From Candidatus Tayloriibacteriota bacterium (GTDB taxonomy: Bacteria; Patescibacteriota; Minisyncoccia; Phycocordibacterales; PALSA-1337): a stretch of DNA of 64,000 nt. Positions 5,355 to 61,435 of this stretch are shown here, piece after piece. Position 1 is the stretch's first letter. Every line of letters begins with the position of its first letter. The notes under the pieces were generated by a model, which was not told where the DNA came from, did not search any database, and worked only from the letters and a program-made list of their open reading frames with translations. A program made the translations under genes and the position numbers. Location of the stretch: positions 2,942 through 66,941 of the forward strand of contig CALRBR010000001.1 in assembly GCA_943354385.1 (NCBI GenBank). The letters run 5' to 3'.

Positions 5355-5425
5355 GCGAGTGTAGTATAGTGGTAATACGTGTGCTTCCCAAGCATATGAC
5401 GCGGGTCCGATTCCCGCCACTCGCA
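5355..5425 (+). tRNA. tRNA-Gly(CCC)
   Basis: Manual cloverleaf. Acceptor GCGAGTG/CACTCGC, D-arm GTAT-AGTGGTA-ATAC, anticodon loop TTCCCAA, T-arm GCGGG-TCCGATT-CCCGC, discriminator A. No encoded CCA. Confidence 0.85.
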
Positions 5426-5602
5426 CAAAATGAGCGTAGCGATTTTTAAGAGTAGCTGGAATCGGACCGGAAAGGGGTCGGGAAAAATGGCGTTTTCCCG
5501 TGGAGGAAGGATTGGGAGAACCTCGGCCCATCGGTAGATGATGTGCACCTGTAGACGGGGTTCCCCAGGCGTTCGATAATGAAATGTCCCGCCACTAGCA
5601 CA
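5426..5602 (+). repeat. tRNA-trailer composite element A (conserved core GGAAAGGGGTCGGG plus a hairpin plus GTGGAGGAA); ends in a 16-nt duplicate of the tRNA-Gly 3' end
   Basis: The core is shared with copies at 8718-8790, 13534-13613, 51896-51975(-) and 61240-61400(-). tcccgccactagcaca at 5587-5602 matches tcccgccactcgcaca at 5412-5427. Confidence 0.7.
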
Positions 5603-5639
5603 AAAAAGAGGAGTATTTTTTGCTATACTTACTCCACCA

Positions 5640-6976: not shown

Positions 6977-8056
6977 ATGAAAAATTCACAAAAAGGGTTC
7001 ATTATGCTCTTGCCGATAATCATCGTAGTCGTAGTTGTAGGTGGTGGAATTTATTTATTCTCTCAAAACAGGCCTTTTGCAGGTACACCAAAAACACAAG
7101 TTTCTGGCACCACTCAAACGTCCCTGAGTTTCAATGACTCAGATTTAAGGATATTAGCTACGCGTATCTCAGATTCTGTAAATAGTGCCCCTGTATTTAA
7201 TACGATAAAGTCTGACGTAATCACAAAGACCGATCAAACCTTTCTAGTTAAATATTTGGGTAGATACTCATCCAATAGTCTTCCACCCATTGAGGAATCA
7301 CAAAAGATACTCGCCACATATTCCAACTTACTTGATATTTTTGATACCAATGTAAAAAAGCAATACCAATGTTTGTTCACATTGGGTGATGTTTGTTCAC
7401 TACAGTCGATAAGGAATATTCAAAACATTATAGGTCTTCGTGCAGTTACCTTTTTTCAGCAAAATAAATCTAGTGAGGCACAAAGCACAGCGTATGACAT
7501 TGTGTCTTTGGGTAGGAGTATAACTACTAATGCTGATAGTGCGAATACTTTGCTTGTTGGATGGTCTGTTCAAAATTTGGGCTATGATATTCTTACTACG
7601 ATCAAGCAAAAAGGAATAATTTCTGTAAATGACAAATTAGCTTTAATCGCCAATCTTCGAAAAGAGCAGAAAAAAGTTTTGCAGTATATGTATACAGGTA
7701 CGGCTGATGAAATTGATTACATTACTTCTCCGAACAATAAACCATCAAGACAACTTGATCATGACGAAGAAGATCTCGTAAATACTTATCGAAAAGGTGC
7801 TTCTGCAAATCCAACTGCTTGGAATCCCACAGAAACAAAAAAGTTTTTTTATTCCTCATACAAGATCGCTTTATCGAATGTTGATCTTGCTTGTGGGTCA
7901 ACTCCTGTGGACAGTATGCTAAATTTCGATTTTGATCCACAAAATCAACAGACTGAAAACTATGTAGGTAAGATGTTATATGCCACCACTTATGCTTCCT
8001 TAGACACCATGAGTCAAAAACGTTGTGTCATAGAGAATCTTATTCAGAATTTATAA
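6977..8056 (+). CDS. hypothetical membrane-anchored extracellular protein
   Basis: 359-aa ORF with an N-terminal TM helix (LLPIIIVVVVVGGGIYLF). The region is low-GC. No motif was recognised. Confidence 0.4.
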   Translation: MKNSQKGFIMLLPIIIVVVVVGGGIYLFSQNRPFAGTPKTQVSGTTQTSLSFNDSDLRILATRISDSVNSAPVFNTIKSDVITKTDQTFLVKYLGRYSSNSLPPIEESQKILATYSNLLDIFDTNVKKQYQCLFTLGDVCSLQSIRNIQNIIGLRAVTFFQQNKSSEAQSTAYDIVSLGRSITTNADSANTLLVGWSVQNLGYDILTTIKQKGIISVNDKLALIANLRKEQKKVLQYMYTGTADEIDYITSPNNKPSRQLDHDEEDLVNTYRKGASANPTAWNPTETKKFFYSSYKIALSNVDLACGSTPVDSMLNFDFDPQNQQTENYVGKMLYATTYASLDTMSQKRCVIENLIQNL

Positions 8057-8400: not shown

Positions 8401-8450
8401 TTAGTAAAAAATGGTATAGTCTTGTGACAGAGCTTGTGTGTTCTGTACCC

Positions 8451-8590
8451 ATTCTCCCTTTAGGAAAGGCCGTCCACAGGTGTCGATCACAAACGATCGA
8501 CTCTGCACCGACAGTACTCTGGCGCGGAGGGATTTAAAATTTAAATCCCTCGGCTTGAAGCCTGCTCCCTTTAGAAAAGGGAGAATAATA
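8451..8590. repeat. modular hairpin repeat cluster R1 (CTCCCTTT..AAAGGGAG, GTCGATC..GATCGAC and GGAGGGATTT..AAATCCCTCC modules)
   Basis: The modules recur at 32243-32350, 33100-33313, 40963-41140, 50641-50672 and 56674-56805. Confidence 0.75.
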
Positions 8591-8596
8591 CAAATC

Positions 8597-8669
8597 GCTC
8601 CCGTAGTTCAATTGGATAGAACGGACCGTTCCTAATGGTTTGATGTCGGTTCAATTCCGGCCGGGAGCA
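8597..8669 (+). tRNA. tRNA-Arg(CCT)
   Basis: Acceptor GCTCCCG/CGGGAGC, D-arm GTTC-AATTGGATA-GAAC, anticodon loop TTCCTAA, T-arm GTCGG-TTCAATT-CCGGC, discriminator A. Confidence 0.85.
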
Positions 8670-8943
8670 CAGCATAAAAAGTATTTTTTGTGCTGTGCGA
8701 ATGGTCGGAATTGAACCGGAAAGGGGTCGGGAAAACAGGCGTTTTCCCGTGGAGGAAAACAACGAGTATTGGAGTGTTAGAAACCGTGGGCTGTACACCG
8801 AATGCTTGGAGGTGTACAGAGACGGAGACTGTCGAGTCGAGTCCGGGTCGGGGACATTTTTAGTAAAAAATGATTCCTGACTCGTAAGAGCCCTGAGTGA
8901 AGCGATGGGCGAGTTCAATAGCGAAGCGTCCGGCCGGGAGCAC
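8670..8943 (+). repeat. tRNA-trailer composite element B; bounded by a 15-nt duplicate of the tRNA-Arg 3' end
   Basis: It starts with an inverted copy of the tRNA T-arm (TCGGAATTGAACCGG). The conserved core is at 8718-8790. tccggccgggagcac at 8929-8943 equals 8656-8670. Confidence 0.7.
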
Positions 8944-13485: not shown

Positions 13486-13620
13486 CAGAAACGAACGCAG
13501 TGAGTCTGTGATAAGATCTAGGTTCGAACGTTGGAAAGGGGTCGGGAAAACCCTAGTTTTCCCGTGGAGGAAAACAACGAGTACTCGAGTGTTAGAAACC
13601 GTTGGTTTCTAAAGCATAGA
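13486..13620 (+). repeat. tRNA-trailer composite element C (core 13534-13613)
   Basis: ggaaaggggtcgggaaaaccctagttttcccgtggaggaaaacaacgagtactcgagtgttagaaaccgttggtttctaaag. A degenerate tRNA 3'-end-like stretch is at 13664-13690. Confidence 0.7.
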
Positions 13621-13622
13621 TA

Positions 13623-13658
13623 CTAAAAAGAAAAGGCTATGTAGCCTTTTCTTTTTAG
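13623..13658. terminator. bidirectional terminator hairpin between tRNA-Phe(+) and hsp20(-)
   Basis: ctaaaaagaaaaggctat/gtagccttttctttttag perfect inverted repeat flanked by A/T runs on both sides. Confidence 0.7.
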
Positions 13659-13697
13659 TATTGAGCAGTTCGATCTTGTTTTGGCGCCCGGTTTACC

Positions 13698-33064: not shown

Positions 33065-33099
33065 TATAATTTAGGTACTGTCACTAATATATTATTCTC

Positions 33100-33313
33100 C
33101 CTTTTTTAAAGGGAGCACCGCTAGTACTCTAGCGTGGAGGGATTTGAAATCCAAAATCCTCCGTCTCGAGTACGAGCCACCTCCTTTAGAAAAGGAGGAA
33201 TAAATCCCTCGACTAACGTCTGCTGAGTCGATCGTTTATGATCGACACCTGTAGACGGGCACATCGGTAGATGATGTGCACTTGTAGACAGCCTTTAGGA
33301 AAGGGAGAATAAG
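33100..33313. repeat. modular hairpin repeat cluster R2 (all five module types)
   Basis: attctcccttttttaaagggag, ggagggatttgaaatccaaaatcctcc, cctcctttagaaaaggagg, gtcgatcgtttatgatcgacacctgtagacgg, catcggtagatgatgtgcacttgtagac, ending in aaagggagaataag. Confidence 0.8.
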
Positions 33314-33605: not shown

Positions 33606-33647
33606 TTTTTGAATAGGGGTAAAAAGTTTGTCGAGTATTGATTAAAA

Positions 33648-33694
33648 TAACTACAGCCCTAAAATTTTCAGTAGAAAATTTTAGGGCTGTAGTT
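33648..33694. promoter_or_regulatory. perfect 20-bp-stem hairpin in the leader or promoter region of the giant gene
   Basis: aactacagccctaaaattttc agtaga gaaaattttagggctgtagtt. No T-tract follows. tatataat lies 12 nt upstream of ATG 33746. Confidence 0.5.
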
Positions 33695-33745
33695 ATCCAC
33701 ACATACACACAGACTTTTCCTATTATTAGGTATATAATTGTACCT

Positions 33746-36700
33746 ATGCGTTTAGCAAAGTTATTTTTTGCTTCTATCCTTTTTATTTTCGGCTCGTTGT
33801 TTTTTGTATCTACGGCATCGGCGCAGTCTTTTCAGAATCCTCTTCTGTTTGTTCCATTCGAATTGGATTATGTCGACTATAGCTCCAATAAGCTCTATAG
33901 CAACTGGTTTACAGGAGGAGCTCCGGCCGACATTGATACAAGTATAAAAAAATTCGGTTCCGCTTCCGGCCATTTTCCAGCTACGGGAATAGATAGGGAG
34001 ATGTTATACAAAAGCCCTAATTTTGATTTCTCTAATCAAGATTTCACCATCGATTTCTGGTGGTATCCAACCACCCAAAGCGTGGGTTTTTTTAATAAAC
34101 CACTACTTTCTTTTTGGGATCTCAATGGAAGTGGTGGCATCAATAATGTTAAGTGGGCTTTAATCTATTTTAGTGAATATGATTTTTTTGCGGTGGTTGA
34201 TTACAATAAGGGAGTAATTCTACGTTCGATTGATAGTGGTGGACTATTAAATTTTAACCAATGGAATCATATATCTGTACAATGGAAGCAGGGGACAGGG
34301 GGTACCGATGGTGGCAGTGGGCTGGGTATTTCTATAAATGGCAAGATGCGTTCGTCAAACTCTTTTTATAACAATGGCATGATCCCGTCTGGGGTGGGTG
34401 CTATGGTGGTTGGAGACAGTGGTTCATCCTGGCCACGCGTCGATTATTATCTGGATGAACTTCGTGTTACAAAAGGTACAGCTCTATGGGGAAGCGTCGC
34501 CAATCAGAACGGTTCCTTTACCACTCCATCTATTAATGATTATCCAAAAATTGAAAACAAGACAGCGGAATCTGTTATAAGTACTACCGCTACACCCATG
34601 GTTCAAGGTACCATACCTCTTCTACTCGCGCATTTTGATAATAATTATTATGATAATAGTATAAATAATATTTACAGCAATTGGTTTATTGGCGGGGGAC
34701 CGTCTGAGATTGATTCGGCTATAAAAAAGTTTGGGATTGGGTCGGGACATTTTTCTGCAACAGGAATAGATAAGGAGAATCTATACCAAGACCCTCGGTT
34801 AGACCTTGCGAGCGGCGATTTTACTGTAGATTTCTGGTGGCGTCCGACAGGTGATTTGACTAGCTTTAATAAAATCCTATTGAGTTTTTGGGGTCTTGAT
34901 GCAAATAGTCTCATAAAAGATCGGAAGTGGTATCTAAAATATGACGGGAGTGGGGCGAACCCAGGTTTTGAAGTGGTTAATGATCAGGGTAGAATGCTTC
35001 GCTGGATGGGTAGCGATTCGCTTTTGAAGGTCAACGAATGGAATCATATTTCTCTACAAAAGAAACAGGGATCAGGGGGTAGTGATGGTGGTAGTGGTCT
35101 CGGTCTTTCTATCAATGGATATATGCGACCGTCCAATTCTTTCTATAACTACGGCACCCTTCCAGGAGGGGTTGGTGCGATGGTCCTAGGGTATAAAGAT
35201 ACAAGTTTCCCGAGAGTTGATTACTATATTGACGAACTTCGTGTCACAAAAGGTACAGCTCTCTGGGGGAATGTTAGTAATCAGAATGGTTACTTTGCTC
35301 CGCCCACAAAAGGTGATTATTCCAATCTAGTAGTAGATCAAAATAAAGTAACTACTCCTGTCGCTGGTCATATTGATACGCATACTGTCTCCCTTGGTAA
35401 CACCACTGATACTACTGAATCAAATGTTGCCTATTCTGCATGCCCTCCTGGATCGACCAGGCCATCTACACGCGAAGAGTATTTGATCAAACTCGACGGC
35501 ACCCCAAAGTTCACGAGCTATCTTGATATAAACAATAAGCTGATCTGTACGACGTATTGGGCAGGTAATGCGACAACCACTACCAGTAGTAAGCTAAAGC
35601 GTTTTGAGTACGATACTGATGGTCAGATCGCTCGAGAGATCTATTATGGTTTGGACGGTGCAAGTATTACTGATGTGGTGACTTATTTTTCAAAATCTGC
35701 CGGAGGTGCTCGTCAAAAGGAGATTCAAAATCGAAGCGGTACCGAATATTACAAGCGCTACTCGACTACCGGCAGACTTCTCTATGAGCACGAATATAAA
35801 AATAGTCAGTATGTAGTGTCGCGTAACTTTACGTATGATGGGGCAGGTAGACTCGCAAGCGAACTTATCTTTAACTCATCGGTTCAATATGAAAAAGTCG
35901 TTTATATACGAAATGGCAGTGGAGTCGTAACACAGACAGATAGTTACAGAGCGTATGCACCGATAGGTACAGATACGGCAAATTATGTCCACACCACCTC
36001 TACCTACGCAGGTACGGTGGTGACAGGTATTACTCGTACTTATTTCAATAAAGATGCTGGCTCACCGACGGCTTTGCGCACTGAAATAGCCCGATATAAT
36101 ACTTCCGGTGTAGCGATAGATCAGAGGACATTTGACTACGCTCAAAATAAACAAAAGTTGAGTACCTACATCACTACTGGCACAGCATCATTGCTTGGGC
36201 GACTGAAGACAGACGAGGAGTGGTCTACTGTGGATTATTCATACGCCTCATCTTCTCTTGCGTATAACACGACTACCGGCGAGCTCCTTTCTTGGACTAA
36301 AACCAACTATGACGATATGAGTGCTCAGGGCGCAAAAGCTGGATACTACGGGAAAAAATACACGGTGTATAACCCTAAAACAGGCTTACCCAAAACGGAG
36401 GATTTTATTGACTACTATTTACCTAGCTTAAATTGGAAACAATCCAACTCTGTTAAGTATGATGAAAAAGGTTTGGTGGATGCACGTCGGGTTCATCAGT
36501 ACAGAGATTCTGCTGCTGCAAGATTTAACTACATATCTACAGTATATTCAAAAGACGGGCTCATAAATGCGATTTCAAAGTATGACGATGTGACTGGTAA
36601 TGTTCTTTCTAACGAAACATATTATGGAAATGGCGAGCCTTGGTATCTTCAAAAATATAAGTACAATACTGCCGCTGGCCAATACGAAGTCAGTTCTTTC

Positions 36701-39700
36701 AGGGTAAATTATAGGGATGCTCTTTCTACCAGTACGGCGAGTGATCTTGTAGCTGACGGTACTGCCGTGAATACAAATCTCCTTGTTTTTGTGAGTCAGT
36801 CAGTCCCGAGAGACCCACTTAGTCAAAAGAAAATAGGTGATAAGATCTTGGCTAATATTTCTGATGTGTCTCTTCGTGGCCAAGCGGAGGGCGGTACTGA
36901 AAAGTTGGCTATTCGTGCGGTGCTCAAGGCTCTCTTACCAGAGTATAAAAACGCCCTCGTTACTGTTTCTGAAAGTGATCCACTCAAAAAGGAAAAACGT
37001 TACGAGATCTACGTGGCGTATTCCTCGAGAATATCTAGAGCGATTTATGCAATAGAGTATCGTATCCATAATATATCAAAAAATCTTAATACAGATAAGT
37101 CCTTAGAGGACACGGTGGTGGGATGGTATGGTATAGACGGTACTGATCTTTCAGGCAACACAGAATTCTGGGGTCTATATATACGACCGGGGGCAGTGGC
37201 GTATGCAGATCCAGAAGCTGTCTATGTAGACATGAGTATCATAGATCCATCTGCGGTTGATTTTGCCACAAACGCTTCTTCCTACGATGACCTCAAGAGT
37301 ACTGCAAAGAAAATAGAAAAATGGGACGCGCTCAGCCAGGGTGCGGGTGTCTCATATTCGAATAGTACTCTATCATTGTCATTGTTCAACCTATCCGGCG
37401 GCGACGGTAGATACATCACACTTGATGATATGACAAAAGCTGACCCAACAGTAAATCTTACATTGGATAGGTTTGAGGAGGACATGAAGACTTCGGGGGT
37501 AACACTCTCCACTCTTAGTGAGTCGGCGCTCATAGATAAGATGTATGAATACTTTAATAAACAAAGCTATTTCAGCTATTCGTACGACCTATCACAAGTA
37601 TCACAGACAGTAAATCAAACCTTGGTACGTAAAGGTGGAGATTGTGAAGATTTTGGTCTATTCTTCCTTAGTTTATTGAGGGGTGAATTTGCTAGACTCG
37701 GTAACACATCTATCACAAGCAGACTTGGTTTGGCGTTTGCGAATGTTGATAATAACGCTGCTATTTCGTCGAGTAACCGCGGAGGAGGTCATGCGTCTAT
37801 TGTGTATAGAAGTAATGCAGACAATCAGTACTACTATATTGATGCAAGCTTTATATTTTTGGGATCAGGGGCGGATCCTGCGAGACCTGTACCAGTAGCA
37901 CGTAATCTTGTAAACTCTGCCGGTGCCAGTACCGCAGGTGTATTGGGTCAGGGTGGCTGGTATGTAAAGGTTGCTGACTTCTTCCCAATAAACGGCCCAC
38001 TTGTCCCTTTTAATTCAGGACGTATTAGTACTTTCCACGATAACACCAGCCAGACTAATTCCGTAGATACCATTGTCGCCCAAGTTTCAAATATCTACAC
38101 CAAACTAGAACCATACAATCCGCTAGTCACCACACTTGCTTCGAGTACAGTCCAGACTATTCCTAACTTCAAAAATCAGTCAGCGGAGTTTGTGGTAGAA
38201 AGTACGCACAGCTTCTTTAATAAACTGAAAGATTACAGAGCCGATCAGGGAGCAGATATCTGGAGTGGTGTAGGTCAGACATTGCCAGCGGTTATAAAAG
38301 CAGACGGCACAGTCAATCTCGCTGGGAAGATTTCTGGCGACTGTGAGGACCTGGCTTTTGCTGAAGCGAGCCTCCTTGAAAATGTGCTTCTACGATATTA
38401 CCTTGCTGGTGGTGCCGTGCCACAAAATGCCGCCAATCAGGCAAAAAGTAATGTCATAATACTCGCTGAAAAGAATTACGGCTCATCGACAGGTCCCTCA
38501 CATCTCTATGTCGGCTATGTGACCCCTAAGACAGATACTTCTCCAGCTGTTGTCCGTCTCATTGATCCACAGCTCGGCACTATCGGCGCACCTCAGCTCA
38601 TGAGCGATTTGTATAACGACAAGTATCTATTCTTTTCTGACCGGGAAAAGGTGAGTGCGATTACTCCATACGATTGGAGTGCACTCAATTTTTCTTCTGC
38701 TGTAGCTGCCGCTGCTGCAAATGGTATCGTGTTAAATCCTGGTCCGGTAGATCCAAAGGCTCCGGTAAAGCAGAATCTCACCCCTAATCAACAGGAAGCG
38801 ATCATTAATGCGATAGTCACTGCAGACCCACCAAAGCCAAGTGCATTCAGTACATTTATTAGTTTTGTGTACGAAAAATCCGGACTAAAATCGATACTAG
38901 AGGCGAGTACTATTACAGAAACTTTTGTCCGAGCAGCAGCAACTTTGGCAGTGATGATAGGTGGTGGACCAGTAGGGACAGTAGTCACAGCATCTGGCAC
39001 TATTATTAATACAGCCTCAGGGTCACCAGCAGATAAGCCTATCATTCCTAGCGTAGGTGATGCAGCGGTTTCTGTTATAAATACTGCAGGGCGAGTCGTG
39101 GCGAGTGTTTTCGGTATCTTTACGGCACCAGGTGGACCATCTGATATGTCTGACGCACGAATGAACGCTGAGGCAGCTTTTGCTGCTGGGAGAATCAGTC
39201 CAGCTGGACCAATGAATTTCGGTTCCGGTGCTGGAGATGTAGGTTGCTCCGCGGCTTCATGCGGTACTGTTTTTGTCCAAAGAAATAATACTACAAATGT
39301 GGTATCTGCGATTGGCTATGGTGAAACATCTCGTACTAATCAGACTAGGTCGTATAACGAGTCTACTAATGTGATGACCATTACTACCAATACCACGATT
39401 GTACTACCTCTGTCGCCATATTTTCAGTCGCCAACAGCCCGTCTTATACCGCCAAAACCTACATGCCCCCTAGGCACCCAACTTTGTTCCGAGGTAACCA
39501 ATGAGATAGTTAGAGCTCCAGCAAACGCCACTCTTTCCGGTCCTCTGGCTACCTGCTATGTTTCTGGTGAAGCACCGTCTTGTCAGACGCGTCAGTACAA
39601 TACACAGTGGTCGTGCAATAACTCACTTTTGTATAAAAAAGATGCTACAGGTACAGGCTGTATCTGTGATGATCCAACAGCAACTGGTGTTAGTCCAGCG

Positions 39701-40576
39701 GGTGAGTGTCAGTACGGCGCGACGATATCCTGTGTGGGGGGTATTGATCCAAACGCCATACCGTCACCAGTAGGTGTTGGTGCGAAAGGGGTCAGTTCAT
39801 TCCCTGCTCCAGCTGGCCGAATTTCTTCTCCGCTAGCGTGGACACTTTCTAGTACAGCTGTTGCGGACGGTAATACCGAATGTAAATGGTCGTGTGGTAC
39901 CGGGTTTACTTTTGACGCTGGATTTTGTAAATCGAGTCAAGTATTTTCTTGCACGGATCCTGTCGGAGTTACACCGATGAATAGTCCAAAGATGACTTTG
40001 TGTCCAGAAGATCAGAGAGATCTTTCTTCAGACACACAAGGTGTAATTGTCACTAGCTGTACCATCCCTAAAAAATGTGAGTATACATGCAATCTTCCTA
40101 CGTATACACGTTCCTCGACACCACCATTTTCTTGTGTTTGCTCGATAGGGACAAACCCTGATGGATCGTGTACACTGCCCACCGTGACTTCTTCTAACGT
40201 GAGTATCTTTGCTACCCCTGGAACAAAAGTTACTGGTAATATTGTAACTCAATATCTGGATACTAATAAATCAACCGCTATTAATAAAAAGATTACCGTA
40301 AAAAAGAACCAGGAGTTTAAATTGAATTGGGAGCATACTACACCAAGCGCCTCAGGTAAATGTACGCCAACATTTACCAGTCCTATTACTGGCACTGGTG
40401 CGGAAGCACTATGGAAAGAAGTCCTACCTACTGGAGTGAATGGTTCAAAGGAGGGTTTGAAACTAGATAAAACCGGCCAGTATATCTTTGGAGTTTCTTG
40501 TGATTCAGGAGGTATAACTTCTGCAGATTCCGTAACTGTACAAGTAGCACCATCCGGTTCATTTGAAGAATTTTAA
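33746..40576 (+). CDS. giant secreted multidomain protein: signal peptide, 2x LamG-like (Laminin_G_3-type), YD/RHS repeats, 2x transglutaminase-like cysteine-protease cores, Cys-rich region, C-terminal beta domain
   Basis: Signal peptide MRLAKLFFASILFIFGSLFFVSTASA. Two ~230-aa units ending in LDELRVTKGTALWG (LamG-type). FEYDTDGQIAREIYYG and FTYDGAGRLASE YD repeats. GGDCEDFG...GGGHASIVYRS...YYIDAS and GDCEDLAFAEASLL...HLYVGY...IDPQ (transglutaminase-like Cys/His/Asp cores). More than 30 Cys between nt 39470 and 40190. Confidence 0.85.
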   Translation: MRLAKLFFASILFIFGSLFFVSTASAQSFQNPLLFVPFELDYVDYSSNKLYSNWFTGGAPADIDTSIKKFGSASGHFPATGIDREMLYKSPNFDFSNQDFTIDFWWYPTTQSVGFFNKPLLSFWDLNGSGGINNVKWALIYFSEYDFFAVVDYNKGVILRSIDSGGLLNFNQWNHISVQWKQGTGGTDGGSGLGISINGKMRSSNSFYNNGMIPSGVGAMVVGDSGSSWPRVDYYLDELRVTKGTALWGSVANQNGSFTTPSINDYPKIENKTAESVISTTATPMVQGTIPLLLAHFDNNYYDNSINNIYSNWFIGGGPSEIDSAIKKFGIGSGHFSATGIDKENLYQDPRLDLASGDFTVDFWWRPTGDLTSFNKILLSFWGLDANSLIKDRKWYLKYDGSGANPGFEVVNDQGRMLRWMGSDSLLKVNEWNHISLQKKQGSGGSDGGSGLGLSINGYMRPSNSFYNYGTLPGGVGAMVLGYKDTSFPRVDYYIDELRVTKGTALWGNVSNQNGYFAPPTKGDYSNLVVDQNKVTTPVAGHIDTHTVSLGNTTDTTESNVAYSACPPGSTRPSTREEYLIKLDGTPKFTSYLDINNKLICTTYWAGNATTTTSSKLKRFEYDTDGQIAREIYYGLDGASITDVVTYFSKSAGGARQKEIQNRSGTEYYKRYSTTGRLLYEHEYKNSQYVVSRNFTYDGAGRLASELIFNSSVQYEKVVYIRNGSGVVTQTDSYRAYAPIGTDTANYVHTTSTYAGTVVTGITRTYFNKDAGSPTALRTEIARYNTSGVAIDQRTFDYAQNKQKLSTYITTGTASLLGRLKTDEEWSTVDYSYASSSLAYNTTTGELLSWTKTNYDDMSAQGAKAGYYGKKYTVYNPKTGLPKTEDFIDYYLPSLNWKQSNSVKYDEKGLVDARRVHQYRDSAAARFNYISTVYSKDGLINAISKYDDVTGNVLSNETYYGNGEPWYLQKYKYNTAAGQYEVSSFRVNYRDALSTSTASDLVADGTAVNTNLLVFVSQSVPRDPLSQKKIGDKILANISDVSLRGQAEGGTEKLAIRAVLKALLPEYKNALVTVSESDPLKKEKRYEIYVAYSSRISRAIYAIEYRIHNISKNLNTDKSLEDTVVGWYGIDGTDLSGNTEFWGLYIRPGAVAYADPEAVYVDMSIIDPSAVDFATNASSYDDLKSTAKKIEKWDALSQGAGVSYSNSTLSLSLFNLSGGDGRYITLDDMTKADPTVNLTLDRFEEDMKTSGVTLSTLSESALIDKMYEYFNKQSYFSYSYDLSQVSQTVNQTLVRKGGDCEDFGLFFLSLLRGEFARLGNTSITSRLGLAFANVDNNAAISSSNRGGGHASIVYRSNADNQYYYIDASFIFLGSGADPARPVPVARNLVNSAGASTAGVLGQGGWYVKVADFFPINGPLVPFNSGRISTFHDNTSQTNSVDTIVAQVSNIYTKLEPYNPLVTTLASSTVQTIPNFKNQSAEFVVESTHSFFNKLKDYRADQGADIWSGVGQTLPAVIKADGTVNLAGKISGDCEDLAFAEASLLENVLLRYYLAGGAVPQNAANQAKSNVIILAEKNYGSSTGPSHLYVGYVTPKTDTSPAVVRLIDPQLGTIGAPQLMSDLYNDKYLFFSDREKVSAITPYDWSALNFSSAVAAAAANGIVLNPGPVDPKAPVKQNLTPNQQEAIINAIVTADPPKPSAFSTFISFVYEKSGLKSILEASTITETFVRAAATLAVMIGGGPVGTVVTASGTIINTASGSPADKPIIPSVGDAAVSVINTAGRVVASVFGIFTAPGGPSDMSDARMNAEAAFAAGRISPAGPMNFGSGAGDVGCSAASCGTVFVQRNNTTNVVSAIGYGETSRTNQTRSYNESTNVMTITTNTTIVLPLSPYFQSPTARLIPPKPTCPLGTQLCSEVTNEIVRAPANATLSGPLATCYVSGEAPSCQTRQYNTQWSCNNSLLYKKDATGTGCICDDPTATGVSPAGECQYGATISCVGGIDPNAIPSPVGVGAKGVSSFPAPAGRISSPLAWTLSSTAVADGNTECKWSCGTGFTFDAGFCKSSQVFSCTDPVGVTPMNSPKMTLCPEDQRDLSSDTQGVIVTSCTIPKKCEYTCNLPTYTRSSTPPFSCVCSIGTNPDGSCTLPTVTSSNVSIFATPGTKVTGNIVTQYLDTNKSTAINKKITVKKNQEFKLNWEHTTPSASGKCTPTFTSPITGTGAEALWKEVLPTGVNGSKEGLKLDKTGQYIFGVSCDSGGITSADSVTVQVAPSGSFEEF

Positions 40577-40962: not shown

Positions 40963-41140
40963 AAATCCCTCGACCTGCTGGTCTGCTCCCTTTAAAAAAG
41001 GGAGAATGGATGCAGACCCCTTCATTCTTTGATAAGGTGGGCCGTCTACAGATGTCGATCAGCGAATGATCGACTTGTTTGCGTATCATTCTCCCTTTTT
41101 TAAAGGGAGCACCGCCAGTAATCTGGCGTGGAAGGATTTC
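40963..41140. repeat. modular hairpin repeat cluster R3
   Basis: aaaatccctcgacc, ctccctttaaaaaagggagaatgg, gccgtctacagatgtcgatcagcgaatgatcgac (inverted module), cattctcccttttttaaagggagcaccgcc. Confidence 0.75.
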
Positions 41141-51486: not shown

Positions 51487-51527
51487 GTGGTGAGATGGAT
51501 ATGCTCTACCAGCTGAGCTATGGGCGC
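51487..51527 (-). pseudogene. tRNA 5' fragment (acceptor plus D-arm only)
   Basis: The reverse complement is GCGCCCATAGCTCAGCTGGTAGAGCA followed by a non-tRNA sequence. No anticodon or T arm is present. Confidence 0.4.
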
Positions 51528-51751
51528 ATAAAATAAGCTAGAGAATATAGCAGGTTTTACAAGAATTGGCAATCTAGCTGGGTGTAACTTTTCGGTTCTT
51601 GGAGGCGGGAAGTTCGAAACTTACAGTTTCAGTACCCCGATTGGATTTTTTCTTCATGTTTCGCAATTGAAAAAACGCTCAATCGGGCTTCGATTCCCAC
51701 CGAAAGCGTCCCCACGCTTTCTCCCGAGTACAATATCACTGCGTTCGTCTG

Positions 51752-51859: not shown

Positions 51860-52024
51860 GAGGCTTAAGGCGGGTATCTCACTCGGAGCAAAGCTCCTCT
51901 TTAGAAACCCACGGTTTCTAACACTCGAGTACTCGTTGTTTTCCTCCACGGGGAACTCCCGTTCCCCGACCCCCTCCCACGGTTCGAGACCGGCCTAGGG
52001 GCGGTAAACCGAACGGTTTACTTG
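51860..52024 (-). repeat. tRNA-trailer composite element D (3' of tRNA-Cys on the - strand); its core hairpin carries a compensatory change
   Basis: On the - strand: GGGGGTCGGGGAACgggaGTTCCCCGTGGAGGAAAACAACGAGTACTCGAGTGTTAGAAACCGTGGGTTTCTAAAG. A terminator-like hairpin gtaaaccgttcggtttac lies right after the tRNA-Cys. Confidence 0.7.
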
Positions 52025-56650: not shown

Positions 56651-56673
56651 GTAAGGTGTTGAGTTATTCTCCC

Positions 56674-56805
56674 TTTGTAAAGGGAGCACTTCACTACTGT
56701 GAAGGAGGGATTTCCTCAGTACTCAAAATCCTCCGCTCTCTATGGGGCACCGAGTCGATCGTTTGTGATCGACACCTGTAGACGGCCCTTAGGAAAGGAG
56801 GAATT
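56674..56805. repeat. modular hairpin repeat cluster R5
   Basis: attctccctttgtaaagggagcac, ggagggatttcctcagtactcaaaatcctcc, gtcgatcgtttgtgatcgacacctgtagacgg, ccttaggaaaggaggaat. Confidence 0.75.
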
Positions 56806-59665: not shown

Positions 59666-59667
59666 AA

Positions 59668-59693
59668 TAAAAAAACACCCTAAGGTGTTTTTT
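59668..59693 (+). terminator. rho-independent terminator after tRNA-Tyr
   Basis: aaaaaaacaccc-taa-ggtgttttttt. Confidence 0.75.
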
Positions 59694-59697
59694 TATT

Positions 59698-59849
59698 TGC
59701 GCCCGGAGAAACTGCTGGGGAGCAGTTTTGTGTTGGGCTTGAAGCCTCGCTGAGTACTTTTTTGAGTGTACTCATGAAGAAAAAGTCCAGCGACGGGGAC
59801 TGAAACTGTAAGTTTCGAGAAATGTAATCATGGTCCGACCCGGCACCCA
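59698..59849 (+). repeat. tRNA-trailer element F; bounded by a 17-nt near-duplicate of the tRNA-Tyr 3' end
   Basis: gtccgacccggcaccca at 59833-59849 matches gtccgacccggcgcacca at 59648-59665. The module GAAGCCTCGCTGAGTACTTTTTTGAGTGTACTCATGAAGAAAAAGTCCAGCGA (59739-59795) is shared with element E. Confidence 0.7.
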
Positions 59850-60999: not shown

Positions 61000-61435
61000 G
61001 TCTTATAAATATGAATGCGGGCCCACCTAGACTCCTGGGGAACCCACGGTTGATAGTCCGCTGAGTACCATCCTTACAGGAGCTGTACACCTTTCGCTCT
61101 CTTTGGAGTACAAAGCGCTCAAGGTCTTGCGAAGCTCCAGGTATTCGCTTCTCACCTTACATGAGTAGTATCCATCGCTGGACTTTTTCTTCGCGAGTAC
61201 ACTTAAAAAAGTACTCAGCGAGGCTTCGAGTCTCAGACACCTCGTAAACCCACGGTTTTCCGACGCTCGTCGGGCTCGCTGCCTTCCTCCACGGGAAAAC
61301 GCCATCTTCCTTACAGGAACTGTACACCTTTCGCTTTTTGAATACAAAATACTCAAGGTCTTGCGAAAGTGTCCCACACTTTCTCACCCGACCCCTTTCC
61401 ATGTCTCATCGTCCATTTGTTCGCTTCGCTCTCTG
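61000..61435 (-). repeat. tRNA-trailer composite element E (3' of tRNA-Trp on the - strand), with an interrupted core and two ~62-nt internal direct repeats
   Basis: On the - strand: GGAAAGGGGTCGGG (61386-61399 on +) ... inserted unit ... GGCGTTTTCCCGTGGAGGAAGG. Units are at 61062-61124 and 61301-61360. The module shared with element F is at 61184-61240. tgcgggccc at 61016-61024 duplicates the tRNA-Trp 3' end. Confidence 0.7.

Follow-up and report, generated by a model that had tools for sequence, protein, structure and literature searches.

In a 64,000-nt stretch of DNA from a Candidatus Tayloriibacteriota bacterium (contig CALRBR010000001.1, positions 2,942 to 66,941; hereafter the window), short structured elements trail most of the transfer RNA (tRNA) genes. 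We propose, with moderate confidence, that they belong to an undescribed, Patescibacteria-wide superfamily of small structured insertion elements that lack open reading frames (ORFs) and occupy the 3' ends of tRNA genes and, less often, of other genes. The elements have a common anatomy, in which an antisense arm specific for the element's own target precedes a conserved core and a duplicate of the target's 3' part follows it. They are present or absent at the same site among relatives, are restricted to one phylum, and have neither an ORF nor a linked enzyme. Copies move between tRNA loci and are lost again, and their core is under purifying selection. The family appears to be undescribed and cannot be placed among the known repeats, introns, integrative elements or guide RNAs.

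Layout of a unit and its target

The common order, which we denote S-A-core-S*, was read from five trailers in the window and about 115 listed relatives. S is the target's own 3' part, which in tRNAs extends from where the T-loop ends as far as the discriminator base and often on through the native trailer or terminator. A is an arm of 10-25 nt, the reverse complement of the target and centered on the T-loop, whose 3' end is fixed at the complement of G52/G53, ~6 nt (NNGARR) ahead of the core. The 5' part of the core leads from GGGGU through a first hairpin, P1 (CGGG[R]AAAC...GUUU[Y]CCCG), to GUGGAGGAA(GG), and its 3' part consists of an optional insert and a second hairpin, P2, with the conserved tip AAACC-GNG-GGUUU and the tip signature ACC-GNG-GGU. 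The conserved joining strands of this core, hereafter type A, are NNGARRGGGGU and GUGGAGGAA.

S* is a second copy of the target segment, in which an altered T-loop side is followed by a direct repeat of the tRNA 3' end. Among 54 copies, the T-loop side had changed from GTTCGAT to GTGAGAT in 26, read GTTC followed by altered bases in 16, and was the same as the true T-loop side in only seven; a mini-hairpin, AGCGAAGCG, was placed exactly at the junction in 14 of the 54. The altered copy follows the target's own nucleotides 57-59 (GAT, AAT, GAG, GAC or AAG) and is therefore derived from the target. From the end of the tRNA to the end of S*, units measure 165 nt (median; range 111-283). Among the matches listed, the direct repeat was found in 84 of 110 copies, lying no more than 100 nt from the core in 60 of these, and in none of the 60 is there an ORF between core and distal repeat. 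The duplicated segment measures 14 to ~75 nt; its left end is constant, and its right end varies. Since S stays intact, the tRNA gene stays functional: the upstream tRNA is an intact gene scoring 59-69 bits. The distal copies of the tRNA 3' end decay and gather stem-breaking changes. Element and tRNA share the same orientation in nearly all cases.

The element behind tRNA-Gly(ccc), on the plus strand, illustrates this layout. Most of the proximal repeat (5412..5430), which combines the T-loop end, the 3' strand of the T-stem and the 3' strand of the acceptor with CAAAA, lies within the functional gene (5355-5426). The trailer (5427..5457) is native downstream sequence, homologous by alignment to an empty site in L142 (L numbers label collected or fetched loci outside the window). 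It is followed by the antisense arm GGAATCGGACC (5458..5468), which complements the T-loop and T-stem, and by the core (5469..5508), composed of the joining strand J0/1 GGAAAGGGGU, hairpin P1 and the joining strand J1/2 GUGGAGGAA, with a covariance model score of 54.7-69.8 bits. The P2 region (5509..5586) is degenerate and contains, in order, a 28-nt module (5529-5556) shared with repeats that resemble MITEs (transposable elements of the miniature inverted-repeat kind), GGGGTTCCCCAGG, and a mutated T-loop copy, GTTCGAT followed by AATGAAATG. The distal direct repeat TCCCGCCACTAGCACAAAA (5587..5605) carries a single mismatch, which would break the acceptor stem.

Two short motifs accompany the units. 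GA(A/G)CGAAG(T/C)GAG recurs directly after the tRNA 3' end in many trailers (13487-13505, 51735-51750 (-) and 61415-61434 (-) in the window; L074, L076, L078, L080-L082, L104 and L108 outside it), and comparison of filled with empty Trp sites assigns it to the native trailer, outside the element. GCGAAGC, which we take to be an unusually stable DNA mini-hairpin, recurs all through these elements, including as the mini-hairpin that splits some T-loop copies in S*.

As for the arm, we compared the 27 nt ahead of the core with the final 32 nt of the tRNA and recorded the longest exact complement. Its mean length is 12.7 nt against the adjacent tRNA and 6.0 nt (95th percentile, 10) against the other tRNAs of the set, so the stretch antisense to each element's own T-arm, reported in an earlier note on this DNA, is real and specific. 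Mismatches within arm/target duplexes are 30 of G.U type versus nine of A.C type. The Tyr arm in L144 and L145, for example, is GTTGGACTCGAA and complements TTCGAGTCCAAC perfectly; the window has a changed T-stem and the arm GTTGGGCTTGAA, all three differences being G.U pairs. In copies at non-tRNA targets, the arm straddles the left boundary of the direct repeat, covering 3-8 nt on the left side of it and 7-20 nt on the right. Repeat perfection and arm match have no clear relation (Spearman -0.23). Some copies with perfect repeats, such as L030, have a non-cognate arm; the L030 arm is donor-derived, and in L086 it is S* that is donor-derived. That an arm can exist alone is seen at tRNA-Arg(cct) of L142 (14145-14196), where a terminator and a 20-nt antisense arm, CTACCCAGCCAGAATCGAAC, stand without a core, 8 nt ahead of the MurC start codon.

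Retroviral-type primer-binding sites are ~18 nt long and complementary to the tRNA 3' end, including CCA. The arm of our elements is centered on the T-loop and not at the 3' end, it never includes a complement to CCA, no TGG precedes it, and its pairing usually ends inside the T-stem. It is therefore not a primer-binding site, and the suggestion that the elements might be relics of one is not supported. An idea of our own, that the elements mimic a tRNA minihelix as substrates for RNase P, RNase Z or CCA addition, was set aside because most arms stop short of the acceptor strand.

The helices of the core covary. In a MAFFT alignment of 47 copies, 95.7% of P1 and P2 was paired and both sides had changed in nine of the 18 pairs; in 107 copies aligned to the model, 97.4% of cells were paired, double changes affected 14 of the 18 pairs and compensatory cells numbered 239. 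No shuffled control among 500 was as good, and pairing dropped to 58-67% when the partner was slid by one column. The A-T to G-C change first noticed in the Cys copy (CGGGAAAAC/GTTTTCCCG to CGGGGAAC/GTTCCCCG) is the commonest covariation of all, with AU in 67 and GC in 39 of the 107. P1 and P2 contain 25 G.U versus 11 A.C. Such pairing-preserving covariation is what a transcribed structured RNA would display and, being strong in 107 copies, supports the selection on a folded structure that had been argued from the Cys copy, with the caveat that a simple hairpin may covary by palindrome maintenance at the DNA level. When single sequences are folded, P1 and P2 emerge, as does a closing stem in which A pairs with S*. 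Optional structured modules occupy the helix tips: a type C module sits in P1 (the Trp element of the window) or in the 5' strand of P2 (L099, L104), and a type D module in the P2 loop, after GTGGG (L031, L048, L117).

An arm of this kind beside a folded core could be a guide. In such RNA-guided homing, which we regard as rather unlikely, the transcribed element would be led by A, through base pairing, to the T-loop region of a tRNA, either the gene or its transcript; the conserved three-way-junction core would act as a ribozyme, or as the scaffold of a trans-encoded enzyme, that inserts a copy beside the paired site; and S* would be a by-product of insertion, kept imperfect against re-targeting. 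The arm does lie, guide-like, directly 5' of the conserved scaffold at the fixed distance of ~6 nt (NNGARR), fits its own target, whether a tRNA of one of 17 identities or an unrelated non-tRNA sequence, and keeps its pairing through wobble changes (Tyr in four genomes; 30 G.U vs. nine A.C overall); the T-loop copy in S* is almost always disabled, and the optional peripheral modules in helix tips recall those of large ribozymes. However, neither the window nor ~1 Mb of related loci yielded a partner gene, the core does not resemble the ribozymes or guide-RNA scaffolds in Rfam, and group II introns are reported as absent from Patescibacteria (PMC13011429). Moreover, the functional tRNA retains an intact target next door, which a guide would attack as its own; copies of the L030 type combine perfect repeats with a non-cognate arm; and the tRNA-Arg site of L142 has an arm but no core.

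Distribution, gain and loss

ARAGORN predicts 10 tRNA genes in the window, and not nine as counted earlier; Rfam confirms nine of the 10, and no other Rfam family passes there. With up to two mismatches, GGAAAGGGGTCGGG occurs five times (5469+, 8718+, 13533+, 51978- and 61400-) versus 0.28 expected by chance, and TTCCCCGTGGAGGAA also occurs five times, versus 0.07. In agreement with the earlier note, all five cores lie 3' of tRNA-Gly, Arg, Phe, Cys or Trp on the tRNA's own strand, and a covariance-model scan of the 64 kb with filters off returned only these tRNA-adjacent copies and no sixth one of type A. Behind Gly, Arg, Phe and Cys, 47-52 nt separate the end of the tRNA from the conserved GGGGTCGGG; behind Trp it is ~34 nt. 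While core and hairpins are indeed shared by all five, the long 3' consensus proposed for them, AACAACGAGTAYTCGAGTGTTAGAAACCGTGGGTTTCTAAAG, is restricted to Phe and Cys: it is absent from Gly and Trp, and in Arg it is broken off by an insertion after CCGTGGG. The Trp core is interrupted within P1 by an 81-nt nested module. Two features had been overlooked, namely that each element is closed by a direct repeat of the tRNA 3' end (for instance 5587-5605 and 8929-8943), and that tRNA-Leu(taa), like Tyr, bears a second module type (type B). In total, seven of the 10 tRNAs carry a type A or B element, trailing 110-420 nt each.

Outside the window, we scanned one genome per species with the exact pattern GGGGTCGGG N8-38 CCCGTGGAGGAA, which matched at least 118 stretches. 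Four of the 118 listed are chance matches in high-GC genomes; the remainder come from metagenome-assembled genomes (MAGs) of Patescibacteria and one contig binned as Bacteriovorax, which gives more than 113 copies in Patescibacteria. The named groups are Yonath-, Ryan-, Campbell-, Nomura-, Taylor-, Kaiser-, Vogel-, Wolfe-, Azam-, Colwell-, Staskawicz- and Berkelbacteria, and many other MAGs are labeled only Saccharibacteria or Patescibacteria. Among the matches listed, at least 68 copies have a same-strand tRNA 15-130 nt upstream, representing 17 amino-acid identities. The arrangement would have been called into question had the core been as frequent away from tRNAs; this is not so in the window, but family-wide ~40% of the listed matches have no tRNA upstream. 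These tRNA-less copies have the same antisense-plus-repeat layout on other targets, often the 3' ends of ORFs or convergent intergenic regions, and in four of them (L035, L040, L043 and L111) the type A core lies within a larger conserved MITE-like unit.

Because the pattern fixes the core by construction, metagenomes were scanned with an independent anchor, P2 plus the GTGAGATAGCGAAGCG linker. This yielded 27 distinct copies, 22 of them behind a same-strand tRNA. The exact core was present in 14, and the other 13 were mostly one or two bases off, one having a large insertion in P1 and two being truncated. Recovery of the core by an independent anchor means that its joining strands are really conserved. 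In viral contigs, the seven matches all represent one high-GC phage terminator plus ribosome-binding site, a chance match, and a phage origin was rejected on this account. The Patescibacteria DNA that we collected contains 203 tRNAs, and for 72 of them a type A core lies no more than 170 nt away. In 21 more, an antisense arm 10 nt or longer precedes a different conserved core, such as types B and E described below (one such arm turned up in the reversed-sequence control), so that ~46% bear some such trailer.

Orthologous loci of relatives were fetched via DinB and aminotransferase homologues. Look-ups with the exact DinB and MurC proteins returned the same filled loci, and empty sites were met only in relatives at 80-89% amino-acid identity. 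In L142, whose DinB is 89% identical, a sequence-identical tRNA-Gly(ccc) is followed directly by a terminator and the DinB promoter, and the trailer of this empty site is present on both sides of the insert in the window. The tRNA-Phe site of L142, beside a tRNA-Phe near-identical to that of the window, is empty as well. Behind tRNA-Trp, the window and L143 have a composite of 420 nt and L145 has a simple element of 135 nt; L144, whose tRNA-Trp is identical, has none. Empty orthologous sites beside identical or near-identical tRNAs mean that the element is dispensable and has been gained or lost; as the Trp elements of the window and L145 share trailer and P2 details, L144 probably represents a clean loss by recombination between the repeats.

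Traces of movement take several forms. Behind tRNA-Leu(caa), L143 and L145 have forward elements, and L144 (~7420-7604, minus strand) has an inverted type A core right after the antisense arm; three more convergent tRNA/element pairs occur in the genome set (L079, L029 and L101). The P1 variant AAATGGCG is found behind Gly in the window, Leu-caa in L143 and Cys in L145, and another, AACAGGCG, behind Arg in the window and Leu-caa in L145. Between genomes, elements behind the same tRNA type are no more similar (0.708) than random pairs (0.700). Cores are 0.73 similar within a genome versus 0.70 between genomes, a weak effect that we attribute to the core being too conserved. Copies also occur nested, interrupted by other modules, and in tandem arrays (L080, L044, L078, L024, L006, L117 and L028); in L006 the two units do not differ over the 75 nt that lead from the T-loop to where A ends, which means that a duplication can extend exactly from the T-loop to the A/core junction.

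These patterns bear on a possible role for the host. The elements could be cis-acting RNA domains of pre-tRNAs, in which arm and decoy copy toggle T-arm folding, or which guide 3'-end processing or turnover in a lineage whose RNase set is reduced, and which multiply by duplication and are kept as useful. The prevailing tRNA orientation, the phylum-wide conservation of the core, the retention of the Tyr element, with compensating changes, in four related genomes, and the switch-like ability of A to pair with either tRNA or S* would all suit such a role. We nonetheless find it improbable: identical tRNA-Gly and tRNA-Trp genes of close relatives work without the element, only ~46% of the 203 surveyed tRNAs have a trailer, and elements are also found behind protein-coding genes and in convergent intergenic regions. 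Copies, furthermore, decay, stack and are broken by modules, and an inverted one persists in L144. Processing elements, one of the readings put forward earlier, are unlikely to be essential to the host in that role alone, since relatives with identical tRNAs lack them.

The remaining elements of the window and their surroundings

The Arg element (8671..8943, +) comprises a hairpin trailer, an antisense arm (8705-8718), a core (8719-8757) and the 5' half of P2 (8774-8790), after which inserted modules interrupt the hairpin. GAGTTCAAT and AGCGAAGCG follow at 8911-8928 and the distal repeat, TCCGGCCGGGAGCAC, at 8929-8943; the proximal repeat is at 8656-8670. Type D modules, located after CCGTGGG, have the form CGAC-hairpin-GAAGTACTCYTGTGG (L031:1844, L048:801 and L117:3068), and the insert in the Arg P2 (8791-8910) is a different module, CTGTACACC...GGTGTACAG; P2 loops are a recurrent insertion point. 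Contigs of this organism in L132, L133, L135 and L136 begin or end within the Arg element or the adjoining repeat, from which we conclude that these repeats fragment short-read assemblies.

The Phe element (13487..13688, +) consists of a trailer, an antisense arm (13517-13530), a core (13533-13572), P2 (13589-13614), a terminator hairpin (13623-13658) and a degenerate copy of the tRNA 3' end (13668-13688). On the minus strand, the Cys element (51860..52023) has a hairpin trailer, an antisense arm (51980-51995), a core (51941-51978) with the P1 variant GGGGAAC/GTTCCCC, P2 (51899-51924), GAGTGAGATA (51875-51884) and a degenerate repeat (51860-51874). Degenerate repeats terminate the Phe, Cys and Trp elements alike. 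The Trp composite (61016..61434, -) is the most elaborate: its type A core has a nested type C module in P1 (61306-61386). The next parts are P2 (61240-61265) and another antisense arm (61225-61236); beyond them lie modules of type B (61172-61224) and, once more, type C (61068-61155), and GTGGGCCCGCA (61016-61026) forms the distal repeat. Both type C modules, like those of L099 and L104, read TGAGAAA-hairpin-CGCAAGACCTTGAG-...-AGCGAAAGGTGTACAG-hairpin.

Type B cores are built as arm, GCC, a covarying stem, GAAGAAAAAGUCC, a stem, GGGG and ACUGAAAC-UGUAA-GUUUCGAG. In the window they are found behind Tyr and Leu(taa) and within the Trp composite, which bears out the earlier remark that the Tyr and Trp trailers have a module in common (61175-61227 vs. 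59741-59793, 94% identity). The Tyr element (59666..59849, +) contains a terminator (59669-59694), the arm GTTGGGCTTGAA (59732-59743), which forms three G.U pairs with the T-arm, a core (59744-59798), a P2-like hairpin (59799-59819) and a distal repeat (59833-59849), and is conserved in L143, L144 and L145. The Leu(taa) element (51600..51750, -) contains the arm GGTGGGAATCGAA (51689-51701), a core (51635-51688), a P2-like hairpin (51613-51633) and a degenerate repeat (51600-51612). A further core, type E, is laid out as arm, RGCCGGAGC, ..., GAGGCGGGGUCGAGAGUAC, ..., AGUAACUCGUGACCGAU and then the repeat, and occurs at eight loci. Whatever the type, the layout is S-A-core-S*, the T-loop copy is disabled and a GGGGUC/GGGGAC motif is present.

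A second, MITE-like repeat family is present at 8450-8589, ~33090-33310, ~40980-41140 and ~56670-56800. It has the inverted ends ATTCTCCCTTT.../...AAAGGGAGAAT and the internal hairpins GGAGGGATTT..AAATCCCTC and GTCGATC..GATCGAC, followed by CACCTGTAGACGG; the module in the Gly trailer (5529-5556) is a 28-nt piece of it, CATCGGTAGATGATGTGCACCTGTAGAC.

The source genome is a Patescibacteria MAG of the Paceibacteria type, identical to GCA_943356385.1. The genes around the elements are housekeeping genes, encoding LepA, DinB, MurC, FtsZ/FtsA, GyrA, IF-2, ClpB, HSP20, RbfA and an aminotransferase. The region between DinB and glutaredoxin is a variable island. A 359-amino-acid ORF at 6977-8056, which has no Pfam match, is missing from the close relative L137/L129 (DinB 93% identical), where the tRNA loci are filled as in the window; in L142 its place is taken by a zeta-toxin, T5orf172/MUG113 and two unknown genes. 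Elsewhere in the window, a cluster of MITE-like repeats precedes a 2312-amino-acid ORF (33638-40576), a series of small ORFs at 47508-49777 matches type IV secretion system pilins (TrbC/VirB2-like), and a truncated tRNA 5' half (GCGCCCATAGCTCAGCTGGTAGAGCATATCC...), called by no tRNA tool, lies downstream of the tRNA-Leu(taa) trailer at 51489-51527 (-).

Relation to known systems, origin and meaning

Our searches for a known identity were negative. At the gathering threshold, Rfam 15 returned only tRNAs in the window and 18 related loci, and permissive Rfam searches gave only noise, with no likeness to a ribozyme, an intron or a guide-RNA scaffold. No Intron_gpI or group II match was obtained at any threshold, nor any sequence match to known classes of small self-cleaving ribozymes. 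Neither the 20 ORFs of the window (Pfam) nor the genes called in the fetched loci include a recombinase, integrase, transposase, reverse transcriptase or nuclease. No element contains an ORF, and no long autonomous version was found when distal repeats were sought up to 6 kb away, the few far matches being second tRNA genes or unrelated sequence. A small peptide starting from GGAGGAA and then TTG was also considered and rejected, as its frame is not conserved. In the literature, full-text searches that included the motif gave no description of either motif or arrangement.

With the upstream tRNA intact and S* accumulating stem-breaking changes, the elements are not introns. The group I introns described in the anticodon loops of Patescibacteria tRNAs are a different element (PMC13011429). 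Archaeal non-canonical tRNA introns and split tRNAs are reminiscent of our elements in their T-loop junction around position 59/60 and in flanking complementarity that involves the exon, and such introns, including those at 59/60, have transposed between tRNA genes. Here, in contrast, the upstream tRNA is complete, there is no bulge-helix-bulge, the host is bacterial, and the distal copy, with its stem-breaking mutations, is not an exon.

Like MITEs and REP-type repeats (Correia, RUP, ERIC, RPE), the elements are short, ORF-less, multicopy, hairpin-rich, intergenic and variably present among relatives, and repeats of those kinds can be co-transcribed with their neighbors. MITEs, however, have fixed terminal inverted repeats inherited from a parent insertion sequence and short target duplications of fixed length. 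In our elements the terminal inverted repeats are not constant, the one formed by A and S* differing at every target; the duplications have no fixed length, no parent element is known, and a conserved covarying core lies inside. Because the flanking repeats, inverted and direct, are copied from the target and range in length from 17 to ~75 nt, classical MITEs were ruled out.

Guide RNAs (the internal guide sequence of group I introns, the exon-binding sites of group II introns, IS110 bridge RNA, IscB/TnpB omega RNA) likewise join a target-complementary segment to a structured scaffold, and in both cases the target varies while the scaffold stays. The differences are that our elements match no Rfam model, have no adjoining recombinase or nuclease gene such as accompanies bridge and omega RNAs, and leave the target gene uninterrupted and duplicated; their "guide" is an inverted copy of sequence 20-75 nt upstream and neither flank-derived nor embedded in a loop. 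Integrative mobile elements exploiting Xer (IMEX) and the CTX phage, which have no recombinase of their own, use a folded single strand that mimics the host dif site, and are flanked by one good and one crippled site. Our elements are similarly enzyme-less, their A/S* stem mimics the target duplex with a central imperfection, and one flank is intact and the other disabled. Their target, unlike dif, is the tRNA T-arm in many differing sequences, and no evidence ties Xer or another recombinase to these sites.

The far end of islands and prophages that tyrosine integrases insert into tRNA genes is also marked by a displaced, decaying copy running from the T-loop to the 3' end, the 3' part of the tRNA being targeted and the tRNA regenerated between attL and attR. 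The direct repeats of the tRNA 3' segment at both ends of our elements could thus be taken for the att-site scars of such islands, the distal copy decaying in both. We judge this very improbable. The interval spans only 110-280 nt (~165 nt typically) and holds no integrase or other ORF, there is an antisense copy of the target, and the T-loop, which is the usual crossover region, differs between the two repeats. Integrases are site-specific, and here one core is found at 17 tRNA identities and at non-tRNA sites, many tRNAs being used by one family. Viral contigs, finally, hold no real matches.

Of the three readings offered by the earlier note, a non-autonomous mobile element that targets tRNAs is the best fit, in view of the filled and empty sites, the tandem and nested copies, the shared P1 variants and the decaying repeats; its way of insertion is a matter of inference. 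The element would travel on the tRNA transcription unit, in the same orientation, and might spread by copy-and-paste between loci at the DNA level, among them different tRNA genes of one genome. Homology at the junctions would come from the T-loop sequence, which is almost universal, and from its complement at the 3' end of A; the junctions may arise through template switching or recombination where the long S/terminator/A hairpin has its foot. Correction templated by the hairpin would afterwards maintain the match between A and the tRNA, which is constrained, and the conserved core would be a functional module, either an RNA domain or a protein-binding site, that gives persistence. Such a junction in the T-loop would account for the fixed left end of the repeat and for the right end of tandem units at the A/core junction, for the chimeric T-loop copy (its 5' part family-specific, its 3' part target-specific), and for the preference for tRNAs of any identity and the donor-derived flanks.

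Several points weigh against this reading. The pattern of presence and absence cannot be polarized, the empty Trp site of L144 probably being a loss. Fold z-scores of single sequences (-2.65, 0.29, -1.72 and -0.94) give weak thermodynamic support. Hairpin covariation and the excess of G.U (30 vs. nine; 25 vs. 11) can be produced by DNA palindrome correction and by mutation bias of the transcribed strand, and they therefore do not prove a function at the RNA level. In about one third of the trailers, as judged by eye, a terminator-like hairpin stands between tRNA and element, which makes efficient co-transcription questionable. The steps of the mechanism are inferred. Non-tRNA targets offer no T-loop microhomology, so a T-loop junction cannot be the whole story, and insertions in their hundreds, with a core that different classes of the phylum have conserved, are not readily explained by error-driven spread. 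The model accounts neither for the non-tRNA targets nor for the strong conservation of the core, and for this reason RNA-guided homing and a host function are kept alive as rivals.

A bolder version, improbable in our estimation, is that the elements are phylum-wide, self-retargeting mobile RNAs, either protein-independent or exploiting host enzymes, whose conserved three-way-junction core is a ribozyme or recombination scaffold, whose arm is rewritten as the complement of each new target and whose insertion copies the target's 3' end, sparing the host gene any damage. If so, they would constitute a programmable, non-disruptive system for inserting sequence at the 3' ends of genes, with no relation to CRISPR, omega-RNA or bridge-RNA systems.

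Patescibacteria have genomes that are among the smallest and most streamlined in bacteria, and nonetheless seven of the 10 tRNA genes in the window are accompanied by 110-420 nt of conserved, structured, non-coding sequence. On the practical side, the repeats break assemblies and can confuse the annotation of tRNAs and pseudo-tRNAs in genomes of the candidate phyla radiation. To our knowledge, many standard RNases are lacking in Patescibacteria, and if the elements serve the host they would reveal a hidden layer of tRNA maturation or control in the phylum. Should the antisense arm be a guide, they would offer a new natural means of programmable insertion at the 3' ends of genes. If they are mobile, as we favor, they would represent a new and harmless way for a selfish sequence to spread, by settling behind an essential gene, duplicating its 3' end and disabling the spare copy.

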